From: Paludibacteraceae bacterium
GTDB lineage: Bacteria > Bacteroidota > Bacteroidia > Bacteroidales > Paludibacteraceae
Assembly: GCA_045590995.1 (NCBI GenBank)
Contig: JAZNRY010000101.1
Location: 5,823 to 69,822, forward strand
Reading direction: 5' to 3'
Length of the DNA: 64,000 bases
Shown: in pieces, positions 5,228 to 61,237 of the stretch
How positions within the stretch are numbered: position 1 is the first letter of the stretch
How the letters are laid out: each line of letters starts with the position of its first letter
Position numbers and translations under genes: made by a program
The notes under the pieces: model-generated
The model's input: only the letters and a program-made list of their open reading frames with translations
What the model was told of the DNA's origin: nothing
Database searches by the model: none

Positions 5228-5304
5228 GGAATAGTGCGCTTATTGTGCGCTTATTGTGCGTCTATTGTCCGTGTATTGTGCGTGAATAGTGCGTAATTGA
5301 CAAA
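5228..5304. repeat. 11-bp-period array (TATTGTGCG type)
   Basis: CTTATTGTGCG x2, TCTATTGTCCG, TGTATTGTGCG, TGAATAGTGCG, TAATTGACAAA. Confidence 0.85.
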
Positions 5305-7128: not shown

Positions 7129-7194
7129 GGAATTGTCCGTGTATTGTGCGTCTATTGTCCGTCTATTGTGCGTGAATAGTGCGTAATTGACAAG
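7129..7194. repeat. 11-bp-period array (TATTGTGCG type, second copy)
   Basis: TGTATTGTGCG, TCTATTGTCCG, TCTATTGTGCG, TGAATAGTGCG, TAATTGACAAG. The last ~44 bp nearly match 5261-5304. Confidence 0.85.
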
Positions 7195-9098: not shown

Positions 9099-9173
9099 CA
9101 CCGTGTTTTTCATGGTATTAGATTTAAGGTTAAGTAAAGATTGGGTTGTCGGGATGACAATCCTTCTTTTTTT
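9099..9173 (+). ncRNA. candidate short RNA (promoter to first terminator)
   Basis: A consensus promoter is followed about 50 nt later by a strong hairpin plus T-run. The alternative reading is a 32-aa hydrophobic peptide at 9112-9210. Confidence 0.3.
9143..9173 (+). terminator. intrinsic terminator after the orphan promoter
   Basis: GGGTTGTC-gggat-GACAATCC followed by TTCTTTTTTT. Confidence 0.5.
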
Positions 9174-9285
9174 ATGTATATCCATCCTTTCGGACTTTGG
9201 CCTCGCATAAAATGATCAGGTGTACCTTCGAGGACACCTTACCCTCGAAACTACGGTCGCATTATGAAGCCCATGTGCTACAAAA

Positions 9286-16408: not shown

Positions 16409-18694
16409 TTAAGTATCTACATCAACGGAAACGACAGTACCCTTGCAATCCGTCTGCTGCAAGACGAGGTGGATACATTCGTGCAACAGTTGCTTGGCAT
16501 GTCGGATATTCGCCCCTTGCTCAACACGCAGGCGCAGTTGGCGGATATATTGGTTGTTGCGACGAGAAACTTGCGGAGTAATCACGCTGGAGATACGAGT
16601 CCCAAAAATATCTTGTAATGCCTGCATTAATACACGACTGCAATGCTCCAAACGGCGTTCATCACGATGACGCAAAGTGATCATCATTAACCGATGAAAT
16701 GGGGGGAAATAGAACATTTTGCGTTCGCTAACTTGCTGTTGGTAGATTCCTTTGAAATCGTGTGCGCATAACATTGTATATAAAGGATTCTTGGGGTCGA
16801 AAGTCTGAATCATCACCTCTCCTTGCTTACCACTGCGCCCTGCACGACCAGACACTTGTTCCAGCATTTGAAATGCGTACTCTGTACTGCGAAAATCAGG
16901 TTGATTGACCAGCATATCCGCTTGCAAAACCACCACCAAGGAGACATCATCGAAATGTAGTCCTTTCGTAACCATTTGTGTGCCGATAAGAATATCCACT
17001 TCGTGGCGCGCGAAACGGTCAATGATATGCTGATAAGCGTCCTTGCGGCGCGTAGTATCCAAATCCATACGCGCCAAGCGCGCATTCGGAAAAAGTCCTT
17101 GTATCTCCTCCTCCAAACGCTCCGTGCCAAATCCTTGTAATCGCCAAGGCGTACTACATTTGGGGCAATGGGAGGTTAGGGGATTAGGCGATGAGGCAAC
17201 GAGGCGATGAGGCGAAGGGGTGTAGCCGCAAGAGTGACAGATGAGGGTGTTGTGGCTCTTGTGGAAAGTCATGCTGACATCGCAGTTGGGACACTTGGGA
17301 ACCTCACCACAATTTGGACACTGCAAGAAGGGGGCATACCCTCTGCGATTTTGGAATAAGATTACTTGCTTGCCTTTAGCAATCTCCTCACGAATACGAA
17401 ATACCACAGGGTCGGCAAAATGACCATACATCTCTTTGCGATGATATTGGCGCTGCAAGTCCACCAATGTAATCTTTGGCAACTGCAAACCGCGAAAACG
17501 CTCTGTCATTTCGACAAGACTGTATTTACCCGACAATGCATTGTGGTAAGATTCGATAGAAGGAGTGGCTGTGCCTAATAGTACTTTAGCACCATACCAC
17601 TGTGCCATCATTATTGCCGCTGAACGCGCATGGTAACGCGGAGCAGGGTCCTGTTGCTTGTAACTGGGTTCGTGTTCTTCGTCCACAATGACCAAACCTA
17701 AATTGGAGAAAGGCAAGAATATCGCCGAGCGGGCGCCAAGGATGAGATTTGGATATTGGATATTGGACGCTTCGCTATTGGATATTGGTAATAGGCTGGA
17801 ATATATCTCGGTGCGTTCGTCGCTACTGAAGCGCGAATGATAGACCAATACTTGATTGCCAAAAACGGCTTGTAAGCGTTCGGTGAGTTGGGTAGTCAGG
17901 GCAATCTCGGGTACGAGATAAAGAACTTGTTTGCCTTGCTTTAGCACCTCGTCTATGAGATGAATATACACCTCCGTCTTGCCACTGGAGGTTACGCCAT
18001 GCAAGAGGGTTACATTCTTTGTTTTCCAACTTGTGCGTATCTCTTCAATCGCTCTTGTTTGTTGAATATCAAGGGTGTGCAACGCTTGTATTTGCCCTGT
18101 ATATTGACGCAAACGCGAGACTGGTCGTTCTTCTTCTAAAAATATTCCCTTGTCAATGAGCGTGCGCAATATTGTGCTACTCACTTTGCTCTCTTCTAAT
18201 AGTACGCGGCGTTCCACACCATTGTTATTCATGCGCAGGAAACAACGCAAAAGTTGCTCCTGCGACTTGGCACGGCGCAGACTATTCAATGCTAATTCTT
18301 GCTGGCGAGGATCTGCAAGCGAAGGATGTAAGTGAATGTACTGAGTGGTGCGAGCAGTATAGTTGTCGTCGATGATTCCAGCGGGTAATGCCGCTGCCAT
18401 TACTTCGCCTAATGTGCACATGTAATACTCCGCCATCCATTGCCAAAGACGCAATTGATGGGGCGTAACAACGGGTTGAGTGTCAATAATATCCACAATA
18501 TCTCGCACCTTGACCGAAGCAGGCAACTCGCCTTCGTGAAGGCGATAAACAACACCCGTAATAGTCTTCTTGCCCAATGGTACTAATACGCGCATGCCTG
18601 CCAATGGTGTTGGCATATTAGATGGGACACGATAGGTGTAGGCATCGGCAATTGCCAAGGGTAAAATTATATCAATCAATATGGTGTTGGACAT
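16409..18694 (-). CDS. priA: primosomal protein N' (replication restart helicase)
   Basis: GVTSSGKTEVY Walker A, VDEEH, and Cys pairs CPNCGEVPKCPNCD...CHSCG...CPKC. It contains two repeat-derived in-frame segments (see findings). Confidence 0.95.
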   Translation of the reverse strand: MSNTILIDIILPLAIADAYTYRVPSNMPTPLAGMRVLVPLGKKTITGVVYRLHEGELPASVKVRDIVDIIDTQPVVTPHQLRLWQWMAEYYMCTLGEVMAAALPAGIIDDNYTARTTQYIHLHPSLADPRQQELALNSLRRAKSQEQLLRCFLRMNNNGVERRVLLEESKVSSTILRTLIDKGIFLEEERPVSRLRQYTGQIQALHTLDIQQTRAIEEIRTSWKTKNVTLLHGVTSSGKTEVYIHLIDEVLKQGKQVLYLVPEIALTTQLTERLQAVFGNQVLVYHSRFSSDERTEIYSSLLPISNSEASNIQYPNLILGARSAIFLPFSNLGLVIVDEEHEPSYKQQDPAPRYHARSAAIMMAQWYGAKVLLGTATPSIESYHNALSGKYSLVEMTERFRGLQLPKITLVDLQRQYHRKEMYGHFADPVVFRIREEIAKGKQVILFQNRRGYAPFLQCPNCGEVPKCPNCDVSMTFHKSHNTLICHSCGYTPSPHRLVASSPNPLTSHCPKCSTPWRLQGFGTERLEEEIQGLFPNARLARMDLDTTRRKDAYQHIIDRFARHEVDILIGTQMVTKGLHFDDVSLVVVLQADMLVNQPDFRSTEYAFQMLEQVSGRAGRSGKQGEVMIQTFDPKNPLYTMLCAHDFKGIYQQQVSERKMFYFPPFHRLMMITLRHRDERRLEHCSRVLMQALQDIFGTRISSVITPQVSRRNNQYIRQLRLRVEQGANIRHAKQLLHECIHLVLQQTDCKGTVVSVDVDT
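17171..17220 (-). repeat. 16-nt direct repeat translated inside the priA zinc-binding region
   Basis: AGGCGATGAGGCAACG and AGGCGATGAGGCGAAG. Encodes SPHRLVASSPNP between CHSCG and CPKC. Confidence 0.6.
17747..17795 (-). repeat. related ATTGGAT/ACGCTTCGCTATTGG repeat translated inside priA
   Basis: ATTTGGATATTGGATATTGGACGCTTCGCTATTGGATATTGGTAATAGG. Translated as LLPISNSEASNIQYPNL. Confidence 0.65.
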
Positions 18695-26905: not shown

Positions 26906-28714
26906 TTAATCCGAAGCAACAATGTCTTGTACCATCATTTGGATGGTGGTATAATGGTTGAAGGTGTTTTCGTTGAGTTCGTAGCAGATGTCCACGGCAT
27001 TGCCGTTTTGAATATACTCTGCCATATCGGCACGCCCGAAGGCGATGCCTGTGATAGCGCTCATGCGGTCGGTGACATCCAATCGCAAATGCTCACGCTC
27101 TTTGCCCACAGCGCGCGTGTCGCGGTGATTGATCAGTCGGCGCGATACAAACAGCGGGCGCGGATTACCTGGACCAAAAGGTTCTAAGTGACGCAGCACA
27201 TTGTAGAAGGACTTGGTAATATCGCCCAACTGCAACTCTGCCTCAATATCCAATGTGGGTTGCAACTGATTCGGTTGTATATGCGCTGCCACATACGCTT
27301 CAAAGCGTTGCTTAAACTCTTGTAAATCATCAATATGCATGCTCAGTCCAGCCGCATATTTATGTCCGCCAAAGTTAGTGAGCAAGTCATGGCACGAATC
27401 AATAGCAGCATAGATATCAAATCCTCCTACCGAACGAGCCGAGCCTGAGATGATACCATCCTCGCCTGCGGTGAGAACGATAGTAGGACGGTAGTAGGTT
27501 TCTGTGAGGCGTGATGCGACAATACCCACAACGCCTTTGTGCCAATGAGGGGCATAGACTACGGTCGAATGGCGGTTAGCGAAGGCGGGGTCGTCTTGCA
27601 ATTGCAGCAATGCCTCTTTGGTGGTTTCTGTGTCGCAGTCGCGGCGGTCATCGTTGTGCTGATTGACTTCTTCTGCTTGTTGGCGTGCAAAAACAGGGTC
27701 GTCGGTCAGGAGCAGTTCTACGGCTGCGCGACCAGATTTCATGCGTCCACAAGCGTTGATGCGCGGCCCAATCTTATATACTAATTCATTGATTGTTATC
27801 TTCTTTGCCTCAATACCTGCCACTTGCATGATTGCCGATAAACCCGTGAAAGGTTGGGTGTTGAGTTGCTGAATACCGAAGTGCGCCAAGATTCGGTTTT
27901 CGCCTGTGATAGGCACGATATCCGAGGCAATGGACATAGCGAGCAACTGCAATAGTGGCAGAAGCCTCTCGCCTGATAGCCTAATAGCCTCATTGCCTTT
28001 CGCTTCAATTAAGTATCTTTGGGTATATGCTTGCGCCAGTTTGAAACCGACTCCGCAGCCTGAAAGGTCTTTGTATGGGTATGGGCAATCGCTGCGCTTC
28101 ATATTCAGCACTGCTACAGCATTGGGTAATTCGTCGCCAGGGGTATGGTGGTCGCAGACAATGACATCAATGCCTTTACTATTGGCGTAGGCGATTTTCT
28201 CAACGGCTTTGATACCGCAGTCAAGCGTGATAATCAGACTACATCCTTGCGCTACTGCGTAGTCTATACCTTGCGTGGATACGCCATAACCCTCGGTATA
28301 TCTATCGGGAATATAGTAGTCGATGTTGGACGGCGTTCCGCCTATTGGGTATTGGACGCCCTGCGGGCTATTGGCTATTTGACCATTATCCATTATCCCC
28401 TCCAAAAACCGATACATCAGTGCCACAGCAGTGGTGCCGTCCACATCATAGTCGCCGTAGATGAGGATTTTCTCGCCTCGTGTGATGGCTTGGTGCAGAC
28501 GCTCTACGGCTTTGTCCATGTCCTTCATGAGGAACGGATCATGCAGATTGTCCAGCGATGGGCGCACAAAAGCGCGTGCCTCATCAGCGGTCTGTATGCC
28601 ACGCACGACCAACATACGCGCGGCAGCGGAACTGATGTTCAGTTCGCGCTCCAACTGCTGTTGCACCTCCTGTTCCACCGCAGTCAAATGCCGTATGTTC
28701 CATTGGTAGGTCAT
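26906..28714 (-). CDS. recJ: single-stranded-DNA-specific exonuclease RecJ
   Basis: IYGDYDVDGTT, ITLDCG, VCDHH, and DHHA1 motif GGHKYAAG. It carries an in-frame repeat insert at 28325-28382. Confidence 0.95.
   Translation of the reverse strand: MTYQWNIRHLTAVEQEVQQQLERELNISSAAARMLVVRGIQTADEARAFVRPSLDNLHDPFLMKDMDKAVERLHQAITRGEKILIYGDYDVDGTTAVALMYRFLEGIMDNGQIANSPQGVQYPIGGTPSNIDYYIPDRYTEGYGVSTQGIDYAVAQGCSLIITLDCGIKAVEKIAYANSKGIDVIVCDHHTPGDELPNAVAVLNMKRSDCPYPYKDLSGCGVGFKLAQAYTQRYLIEAKGNEAIRLSGERLLPLLQLLAMSIASDIVPITGENRILAHFGIQQLNTQPFTGLSAIMQVAGIEAKKITINELVYKIGPRINACGRMKSGRAAVELLLTDDPVFARQQAEEVNQHNDDRRDCDTETTKEALLQLQDDPAFANRHSTVVYAPHWHKGVVGIVASRLTETYYRPTIVLTAGEDGIISGSARSVGGFDIYAAIDSCHDLLTNFGGHKYAAGLSMHIDDLQEFKQRFEAYVAAHIQPNQLQPTLDIEAELQLGDITKSFYNVLRHLEPFGPGNPRPLFVSRRLINHRDTRAVGKEREHLRLDVTDRMSAITGIAFGRADMAEYIQNGNAVDICYELNENTFNHYTTIQMMVQDIVASD
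28325..28382 (-). repeat. in-frame palindromic-unit repeat element (copy in recJ)
   Basis: TTGGACGGCGTTCCGCCTATTGGGTATTGGACGCCCTGCGGGCTATTGG. Translated as ANSPQGVQYPIGGTPSN. Confidence 0.8.
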
Positions 28715-31389: not shown

Positions 31390-31731
31390 ATGGCACGATT
31401 AGAATTAATAGCAATGCTTGTAAAAGTAACAGGAAAAGTTTTTGGTCGCAAATGCGACATGTGGCTCATGGAGCGATATGGTACCAAATATACCGCTCAC
31501 AGCAATCACCCGCGTGATTACAAGAAGAATCCGCAATCCAAAGCGGAGAAAGAATGTACTTTGCGTTTGGCTGCCGCCTCGAAGGCATACAACCAATTGG
31601 TAAAAGGTTCGCCCGAGTGGCTTGCGCTGGAGAAGGCATGGCGCGAGCAGAAGGATAAGCCAGGAGGTAAACCTTCTATTCGCGGGTACTTTATCTCACA
31701 ACACATGAAGCAGCTTAACACCACCCTATAA
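31390..31731 (+). CDS. small basic protein, paralogue family member P1
   Basis: 113 aa. MARLELIAMLVKVTGKVFG aligns with the N-termini of P2 and P3. Shares the central Q...(F/L) helix, the xxP(E/T/A)xx segment and the C-terminal SIRGYFISQHM (compare SLRTFVFRLLY and VIRTLYGYIFHTL). Confidence 0.6.
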   Translation: MARLELIAMLVKVTGKVFGRKCDMWLMERYGTKYTAHSNHPRDYKKNPQSKAEKECTLRLAAASKAYNQLVKGSPEWLALEKAWREQKDKPGGKPSIRGYFISQHMKQLNTTL

Positions 31732-31771: not shown

Positions 31772-31812
31772 AAAAAAGAGGATGTGTCTAACCCGACACA
31801 TCCTCTTTTTAT
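31772..31812. terminator. bidirectional terminator (P1 and C-N hydrolase converge)
   Basis: AAAAAA-GAGGATGTGTC-taaccc-GACACATCCTC-TTTTT. Confidence 0.7.
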
Positions 31813-31859
31813 TGCTAAAATCTATGCAAATGACTTTAATATGTCCTTTATGTCCATTA

Positions 31860-32705
31860 TCAAATCTTCTTGATTTCGAAGTGGTCCACATCTTTCCACA
31901 GCGGGAGCACCTCGCGGAAGTGGTGGAGTTTGGCAATATCAAAATCGGCAATCTTAGTGCCCTCTTCATCGTCTGCAAAAGACACAATCGGTTGCAAACG
32001 CGTATCATACGCCACCGAATGACCATTATAATGCAAGCCCATGCCGTCATCGCCCACGCAGTTCACCGCAGCAATATAGCACTGGTTCTCCGTAGCACGC
32101 GCTGCAATGAGCGCATCCCAATACTGAATACGAATATCGGGCCAGTTAGCTACCACCAAAATAATATCATAGTCACTTCCCGACTGATTGCGCGCCCAGA
32201 CAGGAAAACGCAAGTCGTAGCAGACAAGCAAGAGAATCTTCACACCCTGATACTCGAAGATACAGCGTTCCTCAGCAGGTCGGAAGAACTTATCCTCGCC
32301 TCCGTGGGCATACTGGTGGCGTTTGTCTTGTATCTGCACCTCGCCATGCGGCACTACCATAAAACCGCGGTTGACGAGCTTCGCTTGGCTATTGGACGGC
32401 GTTCCGCCTATTGGACGCCTTAAAGGGCTATTGGACGCTGCGCTATTGGAAATTGGGAAGCAGATGAATGAGCTCGTGATGGCTATCTCGTATTGGTCCG
32501 CTATGCGTTGGAGGGTGGTCATAATTTCCCCGTCCATTGTTTCTGCCAACTCAGGATGATTTGTGCAGAATCCTGTCGCAAACATCTCTGGCAGTACCGC
32601 CACATCGGCTTTCCCTGCCAATGCAGCGATACGCTGTTCTGCAAGGCGAAGGTTGGTCTCCTTATCCGCCCATGCGATGGGGTATTGTAGTAATGCTATT
32701 CGCAT
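31860..32705 (-). CDS. carbon-nitrogen hydrolase family amidohydrolase (YafV/omega-amidase-like)
   Basis: MRIALLQYPIAW..VAVLPEMFATGF (Glu) and LLVCYDLRFP (Cys). It carries an in-frame repeat insert at 32388-32457. Confidence 0.8.
   Translation of the reverse strand: MRIALLQYPIAWADKETNLRLAEQRIAALAGKADVAVLPEMFATGFCTNHPELAETMDGEIMTTLQRIADQYEIAITSSFICFPISNSAASNSPLRRPIGGTPSNSQAKLVNRGFMVVPHGEVQIQDKRHQYAHGGEDKFFRPAEERCIFEYQGVKILLLVCYDLRFPVWARNQSGSDYDIILVVANWPDIRIQYWDALIAARATENQCYIAAVNCVGDDGMGLHYNGHSVAYDTRLQPIVSFADDEEGTKIADFDIAKLHHFREVLPLWKDVDHFEIKKI
32388..32457 (-). repeat. in-frame palindromic-unit repeat element (copy in C-N hydrolase)
   Basis: ATTGGACGGCGTTCCGCCTATTGGACGCCTTAAAGGGCTATTGGACGCTGCGCTATTGG. 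Translated as SNSAASNSPLRRPIGGTPSN. Confidence 0.8.
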
Positions 32706-33889: not shown

Positions 33890-33958
33890 AATATTATTTG
33901 TTTAATGTTTAGTGTTTAACGATTTAACGAGTTAATGTTTAAAGTGTAAAGGCGAGGG

Positions 33959-36874: not shown

Positions 36875-37519
36875 ATGCGACACATTTCTCCATCTCTTCT
36901 TGCAGCCGACTTTGGCAACCTACAACGCGAATGCGAAATGATTAATCGTAGCAGTGCAGAGTATCTGCATATTGATGTGATGGACGGTGTATTTGTACCC
37001 AATATATCGTTTGGTTTTCCTGTGATGAAAGCAGTGGCTAAACATTGCACAAAACCCTTGGATGTACACCTGATGATTACAGACCCCGAGAAGTATGTGG
37101 CGCGTTTCTGCAAGGCAGGAGCATGGAGTGTGGGTTTTCATATAGAGGCGACAAATCAGCCCATGGAGGCTATTCGTATTATTCGTGAAGAAGGTGTGCG
37201 TACCTGCTTGACAATAAATCCTAAAACAGATATTCACGCGCTTGACCCCTATTTGGGTGAAGTGGATATGGTACTACTCATGTCGGTGGAAGCAGGCTAT
37301 GGTGGTCAGTCTTTCATTCCCGAATCTGTAGATCGCTTGCGCTACCTCCGTCGGGCAATAGATGAACGCGGACTCAGCACATTGATTGAAGTGGATGGGG
37401 GCATCAATACGAAAAATGCTTCCTTGCTGTGGGAAGCGGGTGCTGACATTCTGGTTGCAGGCAGTGCCGTCTTCCAAGCTAAAGACCCGATAGCCACTAT
37501 CGAGCAACTCAAACAATGA
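36875..37519 (+). CDS. rpe: ribulose-phosphate 3-epimerase
   Basis: LHIDVMDG, MSVEAGYGGQSF, EVDGGI. Confidence 0.92.
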   Translation: MRHISPSLLAADFGNLQRECEMINRSSAEYLHIDVMDGVFVPNISFGFPVMKAVAKHCTKPLDVHLMITDPEKYVARFCKAGAWSVGFHIEATNQPMEAIRIIREEGVRTCLTINPKTDIHALDPYLGEVDMVLLMSVEAGYGGQSFIPESVDRLRYLRRAIDERGLSTLIEVDGGINTKNASLLWEAGADILVAGSAVFQAKDPIATIEQLKQ

Positions 37520-38961
37520 AATGGATAGCAGCACATACATGGTTGCTGCTACTGGTGCCGTTGGTTTCGGGCATATTGTTGTGCTACTACACGAACTTTC
37601 CCAAAGACCTTTTTTGTAAGACCGCAGTCGATTACTTGGATTGCGATACCGTGCTTGCGCTTCATCTCGTGAGCGAGGGACAAGAGCGAGCAAAAACCAT
37701 TCGCTATACAGCTGAAGCACCTGACCGCAGTAGGTTGCTACTTTATTTGCAAAAAGATAGTCTGCCTTACCCCTGTATAGGTGATGTACTGTTGGTGCAA
37801 ACGCGCGTAGAACGAGGCGACTCGCTTGGCGCATTTGACTACGGTCGTTATCTTCGTCTGCATGGTATTGTGGGTAGTGCTTGGGCACATCGTGGCAATT
37901 GGATGGTGGTAGGTCATTCTCCTGTGAAAGGGATACGCGCTACGGCAGAGCGTTGGCAACGCTGGCTATACCAACGCTACAAGCAGATGGGTATTCGTGA
38001 ACCCGAATTGGGTATTCTATCAGCCCTTACTTTGGGCTATCGTGAGGAACTGGACAAACAGGTGCAACAATCCTTTTCCGCCGCTGGTGCAATGCATATA
38101 TTGGCAGTGAGTGGATTGCATACGGGCATCGTATGGGGAATTATCGTGTGGCTCCTTACATTGGGCGGCTATGCCCGTCCGTTGTATCATCAGCGTTGGA
38201 AACGCACGCTATTGGTTAGTCTTACGCTCATTGCACTATGGGGGTATGCGTTTCTCACGGGACTGAGTCCTTCGGTTATGCGCAGTGCATTAATGGTCAG
38301 TTTGCTGGAAATAGCGTGGCTTTTAGACCGTGATGCACGAGGAATCAACTACTTGGCAGCGGCGGCTGTAATCATATTGCTCATCAATCCGTTGGCGTTA
38401 TGGAGTGTGAGTTTTCAACTGAGTTTTGCTGCTATGGCAGCTATTATGTTGGTTGCAGAACGCATGCAACAACGAATCGTGCTACGCGGGAATGTGTGGC
38501 ATTACATCGTGGGGCTGTTGATAATGTCTGTTGCCGCACAAATAGGGACAATTCCCCTTACTTTACATTATTTTGGACAAACGAGCAACTACTTTGCCCT
38601 TACCAATATCGTGGTTATTCCCGCAGCTTTTGTGTTGCTGCTTTTAGGTATGAGTTCGTTGGCTTTCTCATGGTGTATGTTGGGGCACTGGTTGGCTGCG
38701 GCTGCGCAGATGGGTACCCGCTGGTTGCGCCTGTTTGTTGAATGGGTAGAACAGTTGCCTTTTGCCACGACGCATATCACTCTCTCTGTTCCGTCGGTGG
38801 TGTTGTGTTATATCGCAATCGCCTGTGGACTAATGCTATTGCGCGGTGACAAAGTGCATTGGTGGTGGCTTGTGGGGGTAGTTGTTTGTGCCGTTATGAT
38901 TGTTGTGACAGAAACAATGCAAATCAATATTTATTGCTATGAAAACCTCTTCTCCTCATAG
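37516..38961 (+). CDS. comEC: ComEC/Rec2 family competence membrane protein
   Basis: Polytopic, with GAMHILAVSGLHTG. ATGA overlap with rpe. Confidence 0.8.
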   Translation: MKWIAAHTWLLLLVPLVSGILLCYYTNFPKDLFCKTAVDYLDCDTVLALHLVSEGQERAKTIRYTAEAPDRSRLLLYLQKDSLPYPCIGDVLLVQTRVERGDSLGAFDYGRYLRLHGIVGSAWAHRGNWMVVGHSPVKGIRATAERWQRWLYQRYKQMGIREPELGILSALTLGYREELDKQVQQSFSAAGAMHILAVSGLHTGIVWGIIVWLLTLGGYARPLYHQRWKRTLLVSLTLIALWGYAFLTGLSPSVMRSALMVSLLEIAWLLDRDARGINYLAAAAVIILLINPLALWSVSFQLSFAAMAAIMLVAERMQQRIVLRGNVWHYIVGLLIMSVAAQIGTIPLTLHYFGQTSNYFALTNIVVIPAAFVLLLLGMSSLAFSWCMLGHWLAAAAQMGTRWLRLFVEWVEQLPFATTHITLSVPSVVLCYIAIACGLMLLRGDKVHWWWLVGVVVCAVMIVVTETMQINIYCYENLFSS

Positions 38962-41553: not shown

Positions 41554-42012
41554 ATGAAGAATACATTTATTCTCATTTGTGCGTTGCTTTGTTCTTTGCA
41601 AACGATGGCAGTAAGCCTTGTAATAGAACATCGTTCGGGGGCAGATTTGTGGCAAGATGTTGCTATTATTGGAAAATGGGCATTTATTGAAGGCAAGCTG
41701 CAATTGTTTGACAAGTCTGGCGCTGTACTTGCAACAGAATTACTTGCAGAGATTAAGAACATCACTTTCGTTGCTTCCAATCCAACTACGGACACGGAGA
41801 GCGTACAGAGCAATGCCATTCTTGTTTATCCCAATCCCACGCAAGATGTATTGATGATTCAGGGCATTGAAGCCCAAACATTGCGTGTATATGACCTGCA
41901 GGGTCATTTACTCAGCACAACCAATGGCACACAGGTAGATGTTGCACATTTGGCGGACGGCACCTATCTTCTACAAATAGGTACGCAAGTTGTTCGCTTT
42001 ATTAAAAAATAG
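41554..42012 (+). CDS. small secreted protein with T9SS type-A C-terminal sorting domain
   Basis: Signal peptide MKNTFILICALLCSLQTMA. C-terminus ILVYPNPTQDVLMIQGIEAQTLRVYDLQGHLL...LADGTYLLQIGTQVVRFIKK. Confidence 0.75.
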   Translation: MKNTFILICALLCSLQTMAVSLVIEHRSGADLWQDVAIIGKWAFIEGKLQLFDKSGAVLATELLAEIKNITFVASNPTTDTESVQSNAILVYPNPTQDVLMIQGIEAQTLRVYDLQGHLLSTTNGTQVDVAHLADGTYLLQIGTQVVRFIKK

Positions 42013-42051
42013 TTGAAAGTTTATAGATTAAAGTTGAAAGGCTAGAATAAT

Positions 42052-51007: not shown

Positions 51008-52461
51008 TGATGAATGATATGTATATTGTGGTTTTCGTAGCCACTTTGTGGGGTGGTTTGTATGTAGTGTATATTGGCTTGTATGCCATTCCAACTCTCG
51101 TTGGTCAGTAGTGTTGTGTCGTTTGTCTGTTGGAGCATTGCCAGCAAATGTGCTGTCAGGTCATAACCCAAGAGGTCATATCTGGGTTGCGTAGAACTGA
51201 GTTCGTGGTTGAAGTATTGCTCAAACAGTTGCTCGTAGGAGTCGGGTACCATAAGCGCAGGAGAAAATACTGAGGTGTAGAGCTGCGGAAGAATAATCTT
51301 CTCGTTTTGCCACGAGTAGTGTGAGAATAGGGTTATGCGGTAGTTGCCACATGCTTTCAGCAGGTGTGGCATAACGGTTTGCAAGTTGGCGTAACGTTCG
51401 GTATTGAAGATAACAATGTTCTCTATGTCGCTGCGAAAGGCACTATCTATGGAGTCATTGAGTATCGCTTTGAGGGCGATGGTGGTAGTTGGCACCTCGT
51501 GTTGCTGCAGTGCTTTGTGCAGTGCCATAATGCCAGAAGGTATCACTTCGCCTTCTTTCTGCTCTATGAGTATGCAGTTCACGCTATCTTTGCGCTGTGC
51601 CAAGTAGCGTGCAAGGGTGTCTGCCTCTATTTGCTCCGAAGGGTTGAATTTCAGTGTGTGTGTGTATGGATTCTTTTTATCCAAGTGCGATAAGAAGGGT
51701 ATCAAGCACCAAATACTATCTTCTTGAATGGAGTCCAGCACAGTAGTTGTTTGTTGTGCATAAGCAGGACCTATGATAGCATGCATGGTGTGTATTTCAG
51801 GGTGCTGTGAGAGTACTTCTTTGGTGCGGCTGGTAGTCTTGCCTATGTCGTAGGTGAAGATTTCCATGTGTTGTCCACGATGTTGTGCTTCGTAGATAGC
51901 AATCAATGCACCTGCATAGAAATCGTAGAAACGCTCCATGTTCTTCTCTCGCTTGATTGCATTGGCATGCAGTGGCAAGAGCAGTGCCAAACGAATGGCT
52001 GTGCTGTCCAATGCTGCGAGTGTATCAACAGATAGGGTGTCCAACGCAAGCGTATCCAATGCAAGCGTGTCCACTGGCGTGTTGCTTATGATGGGTTTCT
52101 TGCGCTTTGTTTCTTTGTTTTCTTCGAAGAGTACCAACCGCTGGCGCTTCTTCTCTTTGACCTCCTTTGGTTTTGTTACTTGTTTGTCTTCTGTTGCTTT
52201 CAGTTTTGCAGGCACCAATATCACTTCGTCCATGCGCAGCCCTCTGTGTTGTAGTTGGGGGTTGGCCTTCAGTATCTCTTCTTGTGTCACACCGAAGTTC
52301 ACGCTAATGCGGTATAGCCCGATGCTTCGTTCAACGGTGTAGCGATAATACACTTGTCCGTTGATGGTGTCCAATGGATAATTCAGTCCTTCGCCTTGTG
52401 CAGGCATAGCCCATGCCAGTAGTGCAAGGCAAATGGCGATATATGTACCTATCTGTTTCAT
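51004..52461 (-). CDS. LysM-like domain plus periplasmic-binding-protein-like domain protein
   Basis: Signal peptide. YYRYTVERSIGLYRISVNFGVTQEEILKANP (LysM-like). A DTLALDTLALDTLSVDTL linker, then a type-1 PBP-like C-terminus. Confidence 0.5.
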   Translation of the reverse strand: MKQIGTYIAICLALLAWAMPAQGEGLNYPLDTINGQVYYRYTVERSIGLYRISVNFGVTQEEILKANPQLQHRGLRMDEVILVPAKLKATEDKQVTKPKEVKEKKRQRLVLFEENKETKRKKPIISNTPVDTLALDTLALDTLSVDTLAALDSTAIRLALLLPLHANAIKREKNMERFYDFYAGALIAIYEAQHRGQHMEIFTYDIGKTTSRTKEVLSQHPEIHTMHAIIGPAYAQQTTTVLDSIQEDSIWCLIPFLSHLDKKNPYTHTLKFNPSEQIEADTLARYLAQRKDSVNCILIEQKEGEVIPSGIMALHKALQQHEVPTTTIALKAILNDSIDSAFRSDIENIVIFNTERYANLQTVMPHLLKACGNYRITLFSHYSWQNEKIILPQLYTSVFSPALMVPDSYEQLFEQYFNHELSSTQPRYDLLGYDLTAHLLAMLQQTNDTTLLTNESWNGIQANIHYIQTTPQSGYENHNIHIIHQ

Positions 52462-54098
52462 ATTGCTTTTGTATAACGCTTTCTGCGTACTATGATTACT
52501 GTTGCACCCACTATAGCCAACAATAATAGCGGCACTATGATGCTGATTACTTGTGCGCTTATGCGCCCTTCTCTCGCGCGCTGGTCATTGATAAGGCGGA
52601 GTGTGAATTGCTTTTGTCGGAGTGACATCCAGCCTGAATCATCCGTCAGGTATAGGACTGCGTTTACCATAAAATCGCGGTTGCCAAACTGTGTTTGGGT
52701 ATATCGGTCATATCCCAATGGCAATGGTTGCCCTTGTTGCCATTCATTGCGAATGGTGCTTCCTGCTGCCACTACGATTTGTTTGGTAGGACTACTCTGT
52801 TTGCGTAGCGGTGCATGCAGTTCTATCCCCTCGGGTGGAAGCAAGTGGGCAAATAGCGATGGGAAAACGCCCTCTATGTTTGCCGCTACAGGAATGAAGG
52901 CGTATTGAAATTCGCTTTCTGTGCCCTCAAACAAGCTCAAATCCACTTCGGCGGGTGTGCCTGTTAGTTTGCTGTTGGATGAGGTGGCAAGCAGGGTGGT
53001 CTTGTGTAGCCCATCTTCTCCTCCTACGAAATCCAGCATAGAAGCCATGGTAGCACTCACTTGCATGATGTTGCGTGTGATAGGTGATGCTTGCGAGGTG
53101 AGCAATAGCGGTGCGTATGTCCAAGGCATGGGTTGCCAATTGGGTTGCTGCGGGTCGTTCGATACATCCACGGGTACGGGCAAGCATTGCAGGTCTTGCA
53201 CCAATACGGGGTTCACACGAACGCCGTAGCGAAACAGCATGTCCGATAGGTTCAGCTCCAAGGGGATGATGGGTGTCATACCGCTCTGCGAAAGCGTGGT
53301 GTTGGAGAAGCGTACACCATTCAGTACCCATAAGATACGCCCGCCTTGCATGAGGTATTGGTCCAAAATATACTTGTCCTCTTCCGAGAATGGCTCTTGT
53401 GGGTCGGCTATGATTACTGCGCGGTATTCATCCAGCACGCCAGTCTCTTTGCCCAAGGTGCCACGGTCTATTTGGTAGTAGTGTGATAGAGCTTGACTTA
53501 GGTCAAACACCTCCCTCTCGGTCAGTTCGCCGTGTCCTTCTAAAAAGGCTATCTTCTCCACTTTTTCGCGTGTGAGCGTATGCAGGGCTTCCACAAAGGC
53601 GAACTCCAAGTTCTCAATGCTATGGTTGAGGTTTTCCTCGCCACTGCGTCCACGATTGTTGCGCAGTAATTCCACGACAGCAGTTTTATCCTTATATGTC
53701 AGGAGTGCATAGGGGTAAATGGTGGTTTGTGCTGTTTGTCCTTTGTGTGTGCGTTCGTGGATGACGGTGGGAGACAGCCCTTGCGGAATAGCCTCCGCCG
53801 ACACCCGATAGTCAATCTCTGCGCCTTTAGCTTCTCGCATCTCGCCTCTCGCCGTCTCTAACTCCTCCACTATTTCCACGGTAGCGCGTTGCAATCGTTG
53901 AAATCCTGCGTTGAGTTCGCCGTCAAGAAGAATGGTCACTTGTAGTGGAGCGTTGAGCTCTTGCAGCAGGGCTTTGGTCGTGGGGGCAATGCTATAACGG
54001 CGGTCGTTGGTCATGTCCCAACGCACCACAAAATGGTGCACCAGCAGGTTGGTCACTACCAGTGCTACCACGATCGCTATACCTTTCCAGATTTTCAT
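52458..54098 (-). CDS. gldG: GldG-like ABC-transporter-associated protein
   Basis: N-terminal TM plus RWDMTNDRRYSIAPTTKALLQEL. C-terminal TM IIVPLLLLAIVGATVIIV. This is the GldG architecture. Confidence 0.6.
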   Translation of the reverse strand: MKIWKGIAIVVALVVTNLLVHHFVVRWDMTNDRRYSIAPTTKALLQELNAPLQVTILLDGELNAGFQRLQRATVEIVEELETARGEMREAKGAEIDYRVSAEAIPQGLSPTVIHERTHKGQTAQTTIYPYALLTYKDKTAVVELLRNNRGRSGEENLNHSIENLEFAFVEALHTLTREKVEKIAFLEGHGELTEREVFDLSQALSHYYQIDRGTLGKETGVLDEYRAVIIADPQEPFSEEDKYILDQYLMQGGRILWVLNGVRFSNTTLSQSGMTPIIPLELNLSDMLFRYGVRVNPVLVQDLQCLPVPVDVSNDPQQPNWQPMPWTYAPLLLTSQASPITRNIMQVSATMASMLDFVGGEDGLHKTTLLATSSNSKLTGTPAEVDLSLFEGTESEFQYAFIPVAANIEGVFPSLFAHLLPPEGIELHAPLRKQSSPTKQIVVAAGSTIRNEWQQGQPLPLGYDRYTQTQFGNRDFMVNAVLYLTDDSGWMSLRQKQFTLRLINDQRAREGRISAQVISIIVPLLLLAIVGATVIIVRRKRYTKAI

Positions 54099-55929: not shown

Positions 55930-55984
55930 TGTTTTTTATTCTTTTTAATTCAAAATTCGTAATTCAAAATTCACATAAAGCGTG

Positions 55985-56016
55985 CAAAATTACAAAAAAA
56001 ATTTGATATATGCAAA
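55985..56016 (-). promoter_or_regulatory. PPIase gene promoter (overlaps the divergent nrnA-like promoter)
   Basis: Reverse-strand TAATTTTG at 55985-55992 and TTTG at 56013-56016. Confidence 0.55.
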
Positions 56017-56032
56017 AAAAGTTGTACTTTTG
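56002..56032 (+). promoter_or_regulatory. nrnA-like gene promoter
   Basis: TTTG at 56002-56005 and TACTTTTG at 56025-56032. Confidence 0.6.
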
Positions 56033-56056
56033 CGGAGAATTTCACATAAAATAACA

Positions 56057-57166
56057 ATGGCAACGCTCACTCCTATTTTTTCGCAGGCGGAGATTTGTAC
56101 CGCGCAAGAGTTTATCAATCAGTCGAATAACATAGTTATTCTCACGCATATGTCGCCTGACGGCGATGCGATGGGGTCATCGTTGGCAATGCGCCATTTC
56201 TTAGAGGCGCAGGGCAAGCATGTGTCAGTGATTGTGCCGAATGCTTTTCCTGATTTTTTGGCTTGGTTGCCCAAGGCCAATGAGGATATTATTTACGAGA
56301 CGCATCGTGCAGAGGCAGACGCGTTGCTGGAGCAGGCAGATTTGGTCATTTGCACCGATTTCAACGAGCCAAAGCGCATTGGCTCGTTGGGCGATAAGCT
56401 CCTCTCGCTCACCTGTAAGAAGATGATGATTGACCACCATCTCCACCCAGCCGATTTCCCCGATTTGACCCTGTCTTATCCCTCTTCCCCCTCCACCTGC
56501 GAACTCGTATATCGATTAATAACATCCCTATCGCCAATAACCAATAGCCCGCAGGGCGTCCCATATCCAATAGGCGGAACGCCGTCCATTAACCAGAATA
56601 TAGCCACTTGCATCTATACGGGCATGATGACCGATACGGGCAATTTCTCTTTCAATTCCAATTACCCTGAAATGTATCAAATTGTCGGTGAATTAGTGTC
56701 TTTTGGCGTGAATAAGGACGAGATTTACAACCGTGTCTTCAATGCTTATTCGGCGGATCGTATGCGCCTTATGGGTTATTGTTTGTATCAGAAGATGCGT
56801 ATTTTCCCAGAGTGTCATACGGCGCTCATTTATTTGAGCCGCAAAGAGTTGTATCGTTTCAATTTCCAGTCGGGTGATGCAGAGGGTATTGTGAACTTGC
56901 CTTTGCAGATTAAGGATATTCACTATTCTTGTTTCATGCGCGAGGACAAGGTCAATCCTACCGAAGTGGCGTTAGCGGGAGGCAGCAAGACCAAGATTAA
57001 GATCTCGCTCCGCAGTCAGGGTGACCGTCCTGTGAATGTCTTTGCAAAGGATATTTTCGGCGGTGGTGGTCACGCCAATGCTTCGGGTGGCGAGTATTAT
57101 GGTCCTCTTATCGAAGCGGTGCAATTGTTTATTGATAATTATCCGCAATATTTCGCCAAAGAATAG
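56057..57166 (+). CDS. nrnA: DHH/DHHA1 phosphoesterase (NrnA-like oligoribonuclease/pAp phosphatase)
   Basis: Trimmed to MATLTPIF (ATG 56057, after promoter 56002-56032). HMSPDGDAMGS, MMIDHH, GGGGHANASGG. It carries an in-frame repeat insert at 56534-56593. Confidence 0.75.
   Translation: MATLTPIFSQAEICTAQEFINQSNNIVILTHMSPDGDAMGSSLAMRHFLEAQGKHVSVIVPNAFPDFLAWLPKANEDIIYETHRAEADALLEQADLVICTDFNEPKRIGSLGDKLLSLTCKKMMIDHHLHPADFPDLTLSYPSSPSTCELVYRLITSLSPITNSPQGVPYPIGGTPSINQNIATCIYTGMMTDTGNFSFNSNYPEMYQIVGELVSFGVNKDEIYNRVFNAYSADRMRLMGYCLYQKMRIFPECHTALIYLSRKELYRFNFQSGDAEGIVNLPLQIKDIHYSCFMREDKVNPTEVALAGGSKTKIKISLRSQGDRPVNVFAKDIFGGGGHANASGGEYYGPLIEAVQLFIDNYPQYFAKE
56534..56593 (+). repeat. in-frame palindromic-unit repeat element (copy in nrnA-like gene)
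   Basis: Reverse complement of the recJ copy, about 45 of 49 nt identical. Translated as ITNSPQGVPYPIGGTPSI. Confidence 0.8.
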
Positions 57167-60499: not shown

Positions 60500-60609
60500 C
60501 CGATAGATAACCGATACATAACCGATACATTACCGACACATAACCGATACATATGAATACCCCGTGAATACTCCCCGAATACTCTGCGAATATCCCATGA
60601 ATACCCCTA
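60500..60609. repeat. 11-bp-period array, ten units of two sequence types
   Basis: CCGATAGATAA, CCGATACATAA, CCGATACATTA, CCGACACATAA, CCGATACATAT, then GAATACCCCGT, GAATACTCCCC, GAATACTCTGC, GAATATCCCAT, GAATACCCCTA. Confidence 0.85.
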
Positions 60610-60983: not shown

Positions 60984-61237
60984 AATGTTGTCTATGTTGT
61001 CTTCTTAACCAACGGCACTCCTTGTCTCCGTGTCCATCCGTGCCATCCGTGGGATGTTATATCTCCTTGCCGCAGATCATTGTTGGCGAATCGGAAGAGT
61101 TGTCTATGTTGTCTTCTTAACCACCCGATTCCTTGTCTCCGTGTCCATCCGTGTCATCCGTGGGCGGTTATATCTCCTTGCCGCAGATCATTGTTGGCGA
61201 ATCGGGAATGTTGTCTATGTCGTCTTCCAAAAACTTA
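60983..61237. repeat. tandem repeat, ~111-112 bp unit, about 2.2 copies
   Basis: TTGTCTATG starts at 60988, 61100 and 61211. Each unit contains CCATCCGTG subrepeats and ATATCTCCTTGCCGCAGATC. Confidence 0.85.

Follow-up and report, generated by a model that had tools for sequence, protein, structure and literature searches.

An in-frame array of hairpin units and heptamers in a carbon-nitrogen hydrolase gene of a Paludibacteraceae bacterium, and the dispersed family of small modular repeats around it

Few parts of bacterial genomes are as poorly understood as small palindromic repeats. The array described here lies inside a gene for a carbon-nitrogen hydrolase of the nitrilase family, within a stretch of 64,000 nucleotides (the window, to which all unprefixed coordinates refer) from a Paludibacteraceae bacterium of the order Bacteroidales (GenBank assembly GCA_045590995.1, contig JAZNRY010000101.1, positions 5,823 to 69,822 of the forward strand). 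The window is ordinary chromosome, encoding PEPCK, Obg, adenylate kinase, topoisomerase, ComEC, ParB, TsaD, and other proteins. On its plus strand, positions 32388-32457 read g CTATTGG / ACGGCGTTCCGCCTATTGG / ACGCCTTAAAGGGCTATTGG / ACGCTGCGCTATTGG / AAATTGG g, in which three hairpin units (GGCGttcCGCC, GCCTtaaaGGGC, and GCtgcGC) are each closed by CTATTGG and the series ends with AAATTGG. Read on the minus strand, in the antisense orientation and in frame with the hydrolase, the array encodes the peptide PISNSAASNSPLRRPIGGTPSNSQ, which forms residues 84-107 of the protein. The translation of the open reading frame (ORF) across the array runs ...SSFICFPISNSAASNSPLRRPIGGTPSNSQAKLVNRGF... (read-through FPISNSAASNSPLRRPIGGTPSNSQ), and peptides that span the junctions of the insert include ...FICLPISNSAAS... 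and ...GGTPSNSQAK.... The coordinates of the array, its units, and the related features of the window are collected in Table 1.

The insert occupies a loop of the host protein. In an alignment of the hydrolase with PDB entry 2e11, residues 80-107 take the place of a six-residue loop between two aligned blocks, and the predicted structure places a strand at residues 75-82, coil at 83-110, and a second strand at 111-117 (AlphaFold, 24 close homologues); this model is poor, with a mean predicted local distance difference test (pLDDT) score of 53, and was used solely for the strand-coil-strand topology around the insert. Residues E40, K128, and C162, which we take to be the Glu-Lys-Cys catalytic triad expected for the nitrilase superfamily, are unchanged across 24 alleles. 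Two spurious long ORFs on the opposite strand cross the array (31782-32423 and 32323-32559, both plus) because the TATTGG strand is stop-free in every frame, and these could be miscalled as genes.

The original prediction for this site held that it is a variant of a repeated element, from which it differs by the gain and loss of whole units; two more copies in the window lie in genes for RecJ and for a DHH/DHHA1 phosphoesterase. The details on which this rested stand, with one refinement. The 24-mer that contains the first unit, ATTGGACGGCGTTCCGCCTATTGG, is exact at 32391-32414 and recurs with one mismatch at 28325-28348 (plus strand) and 56567-56590 (minus strand), none being expected from shuffled sequence; the other two copies consist of a GGCGTTCCGCC unit, (G/A)TAT(T/G)GG, and a GCCCTGCGGGC unit, and the GTATTGG spacer noted for them is absent from the hydrolase array; a further 15-nt unit, ACGCTGCGCTATTGG, is present in that array; and the frame is preserved, the 281-residue hydrolase ORF reading straight through. 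The second hairpin does differ from that of the other copies, as had been claimed, but the changed loop ascribed to it is not new: the unit is of a recurrent GCCC-TAAA-GGGC type and carries a C-to-T change in its stem, which reads GCCT...GGGC in the window and is intact in orthologues at the comparison loci L067, L119, and L120 (comparison loci carry L-numbers throughout, and many of them are metagenome contigs). The RecJ and DHH copies sit at sites that are non-homologous to that of the hydrolase array, and the differences among the three do not record gains and losses in one lineage but reflect separate arrays that draw on a common stock of units.

Further copies built from the same units, which the original prediction had anticipated, are plentiful. 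A 21-mer core, GGACGGCGTTCCGCCTATTGG, is found exactly in at least 115 stretches of a collection holding one genome per species, every one of them from Paludibacteraceae or uncultured Bacteroidales, and the 80 loci listed come from at least 30 different species-level assemblies; their sources are sheep, deer, buffalo, yak, cattle, and other faecal samples, that is, herbivore guts. Viral contigs of IMG/VR held 0 exact matches to two unit patterns, and so gave no sign of carriage by phage. For a closer view of the family, a sample of 164 arrays was drawn from the window and from related DNA totalling 955 kb, which represents about 1% of each genome, comprising 130 distinct sequence contexts at 67 independent sites. 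Alignment of these 130 contexts yields a simple grammar, in which (GG)AC is followed by a hairpin whose first base is G and last base is C, and this in turn by TA(T/A)(T/G/A)GG; between units lie heptamers such as NTATTGG, NTATGGG, NTATAGG, and CGATGGG. The first unit of the hydrolase array represents the most frequent unit of the family, and the GCCC-TAAA-GGGC type recurs in it. Within the window CTATTGG occurs 20 times against 8.1 expected, a count reached by 0 shuffles, and a scan with the grammar, which asks for a hexamer followed by two or more heptamers or hairpin units, detects five arrays where each of 30 shuffles gave 0-1.

When all sequences between TAxxGG-AC and TAxxGG were taken, palindromic or not, 60 of the 90 distinct ones had ends that pair perfectly over 3 bp or more, whereas shuffling left a mean of 2.9 such sequences and a maximum of 8. 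The stems themselves are diverse, including GGCG/CGCC, GCCC/GGGC, GCGC/GCGC, GCCAC/GTGGC, GCCTC/GAGGC, GCTCGC/GCGAGC, and others, with hairpins of 7-15 nt; the number of stem types is at least 60, and the order in which arrays combine them with linkers made of heptamers varies. The stems show true covariation, and the flanks beside them, GGAC and TATTGG, are conserved and single-stranded. Most loops are triloops, and on the CCAATA strand GNA loops (GAA, GCA, GTA, and GGA) account for 189 of 226 triloop units and 13 of 41 distinct hairpins, compared with 4 of 41 on the opposite strand. The shortest, 7-nt units read GCGAAGC, GCGCAGC, or GCGTAGC on the CCAATA strand and match the GCGNAGC mini-hairpin, DNA versions of which have melting temperatures of 70-76 °C and require GNA loops (PMC13037366).

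Of the 67 independent sites, 30 are intragenic and antisense, at most 14 intragenic and sense, and 23 intergenic; around half of the sense sites are dubious, being chance-like matches to a single unit or lying at the 5' edge of a stop-to-stop ORF. The host proteins are unrelated to one another and include cytoplasmic, membrane, and secreted proteins, their genes intact and with conserved domains. Hosts concerned with DNA replication and repair are RecJ (two sites), PriA, topoisomerase, Mfd, and MutS2; those of the cell wall and envelope are MurF, MurG, NlpC/P60, MBOAT, MATE, and TolC; and the remainder include carbon-nitrogen hydrolase, MnmA, TsaD, a sigma-54 activator, CobW, an M16 peptidase, aldehyde dehydrogenase, and glucanotransferase, among others. 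Replication and repair genes look over-represented, a bias that Di Nocera et al. likewise noted for intragenic repetitive extragenic palindromic sequences (REPs; PMC3733652). All 84 distinct intragenic antisense contexts are in frame, and in all 84 the common unit is read in the frame that gives PIGGTPS. CCAATAG yields a TAG stop when read as C-CAA-TAG, and a 19-nt unit moves the next CCAATAG by one phase; one frame, PIGGTPS(NS), stays open across a unit flanked by CCAATAG because TAG closes the other two. Intergenic copies show no orientation bias toward neighbouring genes. Orientation within genes follows the host gene, not the chromosome, as can be seen from the window, where the copies at 28-32 kb are oriented oppositely to that at 56 kb, and from two copies in L010; control of orientation by the direction of replication was rejected on the ground that the copies of the window and of L010 flip with their host genes.

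Variation among orthologues indicates how such arrays change. The 120 homologues most similar to the hydrolase share 84-100% identity with it and are cluster representatives, the closest named ones coming from Paludibacteraceae metagenome-assembled genomes, and the length polymorphism that the original prediction proposed to look for is found among them: the proteins range from 267 to 329 residues, varying in length at the focal site and at a second site about ten residues downstream. Four layouts of the focal site were recognized. In the three-unit allele, carried by the window and by L067, L119, L120, and L121, the sense strand reads CCAATAG CGCAGCG TCCMATAG CCCTTTAGGGCG TCCAATAG GCGGAACGCCG TCCAATAG; the two-unit allele of L116 is without CGCAGCG and TCCMATAG, 15 nt in all; the one-unit alleles of L089 and L122 are without two of the units, a difference of 39 nt; and the zero-hairpin allele of L117 consists of the heptamers GCCAATA GCCCATT GCCAATA. 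The three-unit layout is the majority allele (78 of the 120 representatives) and is not a recent private rearrangement of the strain in the window. The differences are flanked by direct repeats, CGTCC(A/C)ATAGCC, of 8-12 nt around each unit, and all are multiples of three, though lone units of 19 and 20 nt are not. Whole-unit deletions bounded by direct repeats are the signature expected of slippage or unequal exchange, and the proposal that units are gained and lost by slippage or recombination between them is therefore supported by orthologues with three, two, one, and no units, by end points that fall in direct repeats, and by a candidate crossover in L122. In that locus (L122:301-1200; P0086) the downstream array runs into the 3' flank of the upstream array, with the junction inside a shared GCGGAACGCCGTCC, and 57 nt encoding QAKLxNRGFMIKP are duplicated; this looks like unequal crossover between the two arrays, although the sequence is a single 1.4-kb metagenome contig that may be an assembly chimera. 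Other orthologous sites likewise vary by whole units or by heptamer number, as in a 24-nt indel of ATATTGG plus ACGGCTGCGCCTATTGG and a site with two to seven heptamers, and tandem duplications of one-unit and three-unit blocks are found in L045 and L081. RecJ homologues have two variable sites, with several unrelated inserts at each.

The second insertion site of the hydrolase (residues ~117-122; window 32559-32323 region), some ten residues past the focal one, is empty in the window, where the protein reads VVPHGE. Elsewhere (L089, L119, and L067 are examples) it holds a TATTGG array, an array of CCGATAN heptamers that includes one GCGAAGC unit, or else an element that is unrelated and encodes HSVYPNREELEGGSNLPSLQGGDGGR, and the 'empty' IKPNAP alleles contain CCAATGC ACCCATT, which resembles remnants of heptamers.

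Taken together, these data make it probable that the focal stretch is an array of a lineage-specific, modular repeat family resembling REPs and bacterial interspersed mosaic elements (BIMEs), that it is translated as a tolerated loop extension, and that its number of units shifts by slippage or unequal exchange. Within genes, only a filtered subset of insertions would survive, namely those that add peptides rich in proline, serine, asparagine, glycine, and threonine to short surface loops. Replication slippage, or unequal exchange, between the direct repeats that bracket the units would change unit number, with break points expected in CGTCCMATAGCC repeats, and the formation of hairpins in single-stranded DNA would probably favour this, given that the units of 7 nt correspond exactly to the GCGNAGC mini-hairpin, which is very stable. 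Ectopic recombination or gene conversion may keep the units alike and carry unit types from one array to another. For the colonization of new sites the best guess is a REP-like route through single-stranded DNA, served by a structure-specific enzyme that would be encoded elsewhere in the genome.

Several observations weigh against this account. Slippage explains loss and tandem duplication, not the first arrival of a different type of unit, and Pfam found no transposase, integrase, reverse transcriptase, or HUH/RAYT protein (RAYT, REP-associated tyrosine transposase) among the approximately 45 ORFs of the window. A motif scan for HUH...Y in the window and the 955 kb of related loci was equally negative, though with about 1% of each genome covered it is uninformative for whole genomes; the array-rich locus L064, examined for a gene flanked by repeats, has only small uncharacterized genes and an AAA ATPase. 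Stems measure just 2-6 bp; nearest-neighbour folding of the 86-nt focal region, as DNA of either strand and as RNA, was no better than that of shuffled sequences (z from +0.75 to +0.94), a method that does not model the GCGNAGC motif; and a strand test comparing G.T with A.C mismatches in stems gave no clear preference (4 against 8). It is covariation, not folding energy, that makes the case for hairpin structure. Orientation poses a further difficulty. The TATTGG strand is open in three frames (LDGVPPIG, GRRSAYW, and TAFRLL), yet it is the sense strand in only seven contexts, and therefore stop codons do not account for the orientation bias. The bias may plausibly reflect selection on the encoded peptide, with flexible sequences rich in P, S, N, G, and T being tolerated and aromatic or hydrophobic ones not; TAATGG-type units in the sense orientation encode MDNG...RSQSEL, which fits this explanation.

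The degree of conservation is also at odds with it. Across five three-unit alleles (L119, L120, and L121, retrieved via their proteins, together with the window and L067, in which the 21-mer used for the search is present), identity over the 72 nt of the insert is 96%, both overall and at third codon positions; for the coding DNA on either side it is 84% overall and 64% at third positions. Seven further orthologous sites gave 97.7% identity for array bases lying outside the search core, compared with 88% for the flanks. On these alignments the conservation of the insert appears too high for neutral selfish DNA or for the decay of an old insertion; it needs either homogenization by gene conversion combined with a constraint that fixes the consensus across at least 30 species, or direct selection on DNA or RNA.

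Slippage, moreover, cannot place an unrelated cassette at this codon when the strains otherwise agree at 97.5%, and this is what is seen. Outside its insert, the hydrolase of the window is 97.5% identical to proteins carrying PTPPAAGVCCSPAEVLLKQVVDVVVKSAPF at the same codon. The insert of L118 (L118:1731-1899, at the codon of window 32385-32456) comprises a 9-bp hairpin, CCGCTGGGG-TGTGTTGTT-CCCCAGCGG, followed by short repeats of the GTTGTT type; on the 3' side of the insert the DNA of the window and L118 agrees at about 95%, a figure that reaches 98-100% across 180 nt, and on the 5' side at about 86%. The L118 cassette itself belongs to a dispersed family. A metagenome scan for its hairpin returned mostly unrelated soil palindromes together with 14 relevant loci, several with common flanks and mostly intergenic (L142, L150, L157, L162, L164, L166, L173, L177, L182, L185-L187, L191, and L194). 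A third type of insert, with GGCGATA-type heptamers and another hairpin, is carried by L017. The loop may be one of few places where an insert is tolerated, combined with frequent insertion; existing repeat tracts may attract further elements; or homologous recombination may shuffle old alleles between lineages, and the mosaic similarity favours at least some of the last. A bolder reading, offered tentatively and judged on balance improbable, is that cassettes of a GC-rich hairpin plus tandem repeats of about 7 nt, from at least two unrelated families, are parts of an active and possibly site-seeking system that installs, swaps, and resizes cassettes at fixed codons in the surface loops of housekeeping proteins, their DNA being held constant across at least 30 species by sequence- or structure-specific machinery and not by descent. 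If this is true, it would be a new way to generate and maintain strain-level polymorphism in protein loops and a new class of very small mobile DNA; if the targeting is real, the swapping of cassettes at fixed codons would give strains a source of protein variation that is new.

Among the alternatives to a REP/BIME-like array resized by slippage or exchange, the one that survives best, possible though doubtful, is that single hairpin units are themselves mobile, as has been proposed for the 21-27-nt small dispersed repeats (SDRs) of cyanobacteria. An enzyme of the HUH/RAYT or another type would insert a unit into a heptamer tract and duplicate a heptamer, so that a gain of a unit would be an insertion and the tracts would be hot spots. 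Conserved GGAC and TATTGG flanks around a stem of variable sequence but conserved structure would suit a structure-specific enzyme, and HUH/RAYT enzymes recognize a variable hairpin between conserved single-stranded flanks. A RAYT subclass that is specific to Bacteroidetes and has 'atypical secondary structures' has been described (PMC6006769); the scans reported above found no candidate enzyme in the window and the related 955 kb. The L117 allele, with its heptamers only, would represent a tract without hairpins where other focal alleles have them between heptamers, but deletion alone derives every short focal allele from the three-unit majority allele. The hexamers on either side of a unit are identical in 90 of 191 cases, against 68 expected, a modest excess, for which the uniformity of single arrays accounts just as well; the heptamers of one array do tend to be of one type, as in the TATTGG and TAATGG alleles of one site, which itself can be read in favour of insertion with duplication. 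The presence of two unrelated hairpin-plus-repeat families at the same codon agrees with this reading. Near-identical two-unit composites at unrelated sites, on the other hand, suggest that larger blocks move.

It is less likely again that the units are functional signals under selection or molecular drive, whether a signal of the uptake type, a site bound by some protein that recognizes DNA or RNA, or a structure in the mRNA; the need for many copies would then bring them into genes as a side effect. The third-position conservation of the insert relative to its host gene, the conservation of arrays over flanks at other sites, and the exact recurrence of the 21-mer across at least 30 species are what such a signal would produce, and the jump in similarity between the window and L118 at the insert is typical of recombination tracts. 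DNA uptake sequences, however, are fixed words of 9-12 nt present at about one copy per kb in both orientations, whereas the core of this family occurs three times in 64 kb, which is a low density for an uptake signal, and it has variable stems and an orientation bias in genes; the free variation of stems with compensatory changes would point to recognition of structure and not of a fixed uptake word. A bias toward genome-maintenance genes has also been reported for uptake sequences. Several hosts of the present family maintain the genome (RecJ, PriA, Mfd, MutS2, and topoisomerase), and a like bias is reported for intragenic REPs (PMC3733652). The competence gene comEC lies in the window (37516-38961), but ComEC is nearly universal and so is no evidence for competence. 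Whole units come and go without visible cost, and an unrelated cassette can stand in for the array, both of which argue against a required signal.

Selection at the level of the protein, with PIGGTPSNS-type peptides serving as linkers or modification sites and the likeness of the DNA being secondary, is very improbable, since conserved synonymous sites and copies lying between genes already largely refute it. The use of one peptide frame in all 84 contexts would suit it but is forced by the TAG stops in the other two frames, and the amino-acid diversity of the insert, which at 0.063 is not above the 0.107 of the rest of the hydrolase, has to be set beside third codon positions as conserved as the others. 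The same units also occur between genes and in both orientations, in unrelated hosts that may be cytoplasmic, membrane-bound, or secreted, and alleles with no insert or an unrelated one coexist in near-identical strains. That the array is an artefact of metagenome assembly or binning can practically be dismissed, for although most comparison sequences are metagenome contigs and the recombinant L122 is a single short one, the same arrays stand at the same sites in over 100 assemblies that are independent of one another and come from various projects and hosts, the repeats are far below assembly k-mer length, and the reading frames are intact. An intein or intron was rejected, the insert being too small, lacking such motifs, and always keeping the frame. 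A diversity-generating retroelement was also rejected, there being no pair of template and variable repeats; a bAvd-like gene in L120 looks coincidental. This gene, upstream of the hydrolase at L120:1-206, matches the bAvd / 23S rRNA IVP families, has no evident link to the repeats, and is not part of the synteny of the window, in which FloA/NfeD lie upstream.

Compared with repeat systems already described, the family works like REPs and BIMEs. Shared features are short, GC-rich hairpins with a conserved unpaired tag beside the stem, many dispersed copies with several hairpin types per genome, mosaic clusters of hairpins and linkers, compensatory changes in stems, and a master sequence conserved across related species. 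The differences are nonetheless considerable. REPs are 20-40 bp long, whereas the hairpins of the family are 7-15 nt with stems of 2-6 bp; REPs bear a GTAG tag at their 5' foot, whereas the family is without GTAG and has GGAC (5') and TATTGG (3') as flanks; REPs are mainly extragenic, whereas about half of the sampled sites of the family are in genes; and the linkers of the family, unlike those of BIMEs, are tandem heptamers. The repeat-flanked RAYT (an HUH Y1 transposase) that marks a REPtron was absent from the window and the 955 kb sampled, about 1% of each genome.

Three described systems resemble it most. The CGTC-tagged REPs, which include the Rickettsia palindromic elements, occur in Bacteroidetes too and have no dedicated transposase (Di Nocera et al. 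2013, PMC3733652); they lie within ORFs and keep the frame, frequently forming dimers or clusters that encode 20-80 residues, and replication or repair genes are frequent hosts (PMC3733652). In-frame residence in functional ORFs is common to both, and the sense strand of every unit of the family ends stem-C/GTCC/AATA, so that CGTC and CCA are present. The tag of the CGTC REPs is, however, unpaired, whereas the C of CGTC in the family is the last paired base of the stem; their stems are 8-9 bp, opening with A-T, and their loops 4-5 nt (PMC3733652), against 2-6 bp, G-C ends, and mostly triloops here. Rickettsia palindromic elements are 100-150 bp, far longer than the units of the family, and heptamer scaffolds are not described for the CGTC class. 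The SDRs of cyanobacteria, reportedly set out by Elhai and colleagues in 2008, are said to be hairpins of about 21-27 nt within tandem heptamer arrays known as short tandemly repeated repetitive (STRR) sequences, variable in presence among strains and mainly intergenic, and they are not known to have a transposase. The units of the family, which are 15-24 nt including one heptamer and stand between NTATTGG heptamers, are similar in plan, but the family differs in phylum (Bacteroidota) and in sequence, and in-frame residence in housekeeping genes is not a hallmark of SDRs. Heptamer repeats are also known from some Bacteroidetes (PMC4679880). The third likeness is to the GCGNAGC mini-hairpin (Hirao and co-workers; PMC13037366), which the 7-nt units match exactly on the gene-sense strand and whose GNA triloops the longer units mostly keep; this is, however, a physical motif and not a family of elements, its known natural sites are single-strand origins of phages and plasmids, and no role in dispersed repeats has been described for it.

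Other categories fit less well. [quoted passage not shown] Contingency loci, where a change in repeat number turns a gene on or off by shifting its frame or its promoter spacing, are a poor match since hydrolase and RecJ alleles stay in frame, changing in steps of 15, 24, and 39 nt, and the hosts are housekeeping genes, though a protein search would miss frameshifted alleles. Literature searches aimed at the family returned no description of it. It is therefore not filed in any described family, and is left outside them because hairpin size, stem composition, the GTAG tag, extragenic location, and inverted repeats or duplications all fail to agree.

To our knowledge, no mobilizing enzyme has been found for elements of the CGTC or the SDR type. 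The present family is an unusually clean system, with tiny units that can be parsed, dozens of orthologous sites across at least 30 species, and natural alleles in public metagenomes that differ by whole units, and the conservation of the insert beyond the neutral level calls for explanation. For annotation, in-frame arrays make the housekeeping proteins of uncultured Bacteroidales from rumen and hindgut longer and more diverse, and the clustering of orthologues, the typing of strains, and the prediction of structures can all be misled by them.

Table 1. Arrays, units, and host gene in the window (positions from the first nucleotide of the window)
Feature	Position	Strand	Details
Host gene, carbon-nitrogen hydrolase (nitrilase family)	ORF 31860-32705	-	281 aa; Pfam CN_hydrolase PF00795, E=9e-35
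Focal array	32388-32457	+	CTATTGG 32389-32395, three hairpin units, AAATTGG 32450-32456 on the TATTGG strand
Unit 1, ACGGCGTTCCGCCTATTGG	32396-32414	+	Stem GGCG/CGCC; loop TTC, which is GAA on the gene-sense strand
Unit 2, ACGCCTTAAAGGGCTATTGG	32415-32434	+	GCCC-TAAA-GGGC type with C-to-T stem change
Unit 3, ACGCTGCGCTATTGG	32435-32449	+	15 nt; sense strand GCGCAGC, fits the GCGNAGC mini-hairpin motif; missing in the L116 allele
RecJ sister array	28325-28381	+	ORF 26906-28714 (-); GGCGTTCCGCC unit, GTATTGG, GCCCTGCGGGC unit, then heptamers; peptide MDNGQIANSPQGVQYPIGGTPSN
DHH/DHHA1 phosphoesterase sister array	56527-56591	-	ORF 55982-57166 (+); two hairpin units as in the RecJ array; antisense to host; peptide SPITNSPQGVPYPIGGTPSI
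PriA short array	17747-17795	+	ORF 16409-18694 (-); TATTGG heptamers and one ACGCTTCGCTATTGG unit, sense strand GCGAAGC
Heptamer-only tract	2064-2090	+	TTTTGG CAATTGG TCATTGG CAATTGG; BspA-type leucine-rich repeat gene, ORF 1991-3412 (-); possible relative without hairpin

Additional repeats accompany the arrays in the RecJ and PriA genes of the window. Next to the RecJ array, at 28383-28398, CCATTAT heptamers (TAATGG-type, inverted) stand head to head with it, and in L017 and L045 this inverted side is lengthened by whole inverted hairpin units encoding MDNGRSQSELMDNG. A second in-frame insert in RecJ, at 27971-27998 (residue ~236), has an 8-nt period with a Tandem Repeats Finder (TRF) consensus of GCCTAATA and encodes IEAKGNEAIRLSGER; other strains carry at this site TATTGG/TAATGG hairpin arrays, another short insert, or none (QQYGLPFDNLVPLL). 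PriA, too, has a second insert, at 17176-17215, of in-frame 8-nt repeats that read CGCCTCAT CGCCTCGT TGCCTCAT CGCCTAAT on the sense strand. At 53817-53858, CTCTCGC is repeated 5.7 times on the plus strand (GGCGAGA-type on the sense strand) within ORF 52458-54098, which encodes an ABC_transp_aux protein, and GGCGAGA/GGCGATA heptamers border many TATTGG arrays in related loci.

The genome is broadly rich in short-period repeats. Many tandem repeats of short period (7, 8, 9, or 11 nt) lie between genes, as does a repeat of 111 nt in 2.2 copies; they are located at 5234-5294, 7132-7184, 60500-60607, 60987-61227, 33899-33942, and 42011-42040. Small basic proteins of about 100 residues with a ...KYGTxYT... 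motif and no Pfam match are encoded beside the hydrolase (31390-31731, plus strand) and between intergenic arrays in L064 (L064:1087-1383 and 1443-1757). An Rfam scan of the window at gathering thresholds gave zero matches at the arrays, and the window contains no tRNAs; the scan's sole match was FopS (RF04319, 77 bits), a member of a Bacteroidetes small RNA (sRNA) family whose presence marks the window as Bacteroidota, at 9103-9176.

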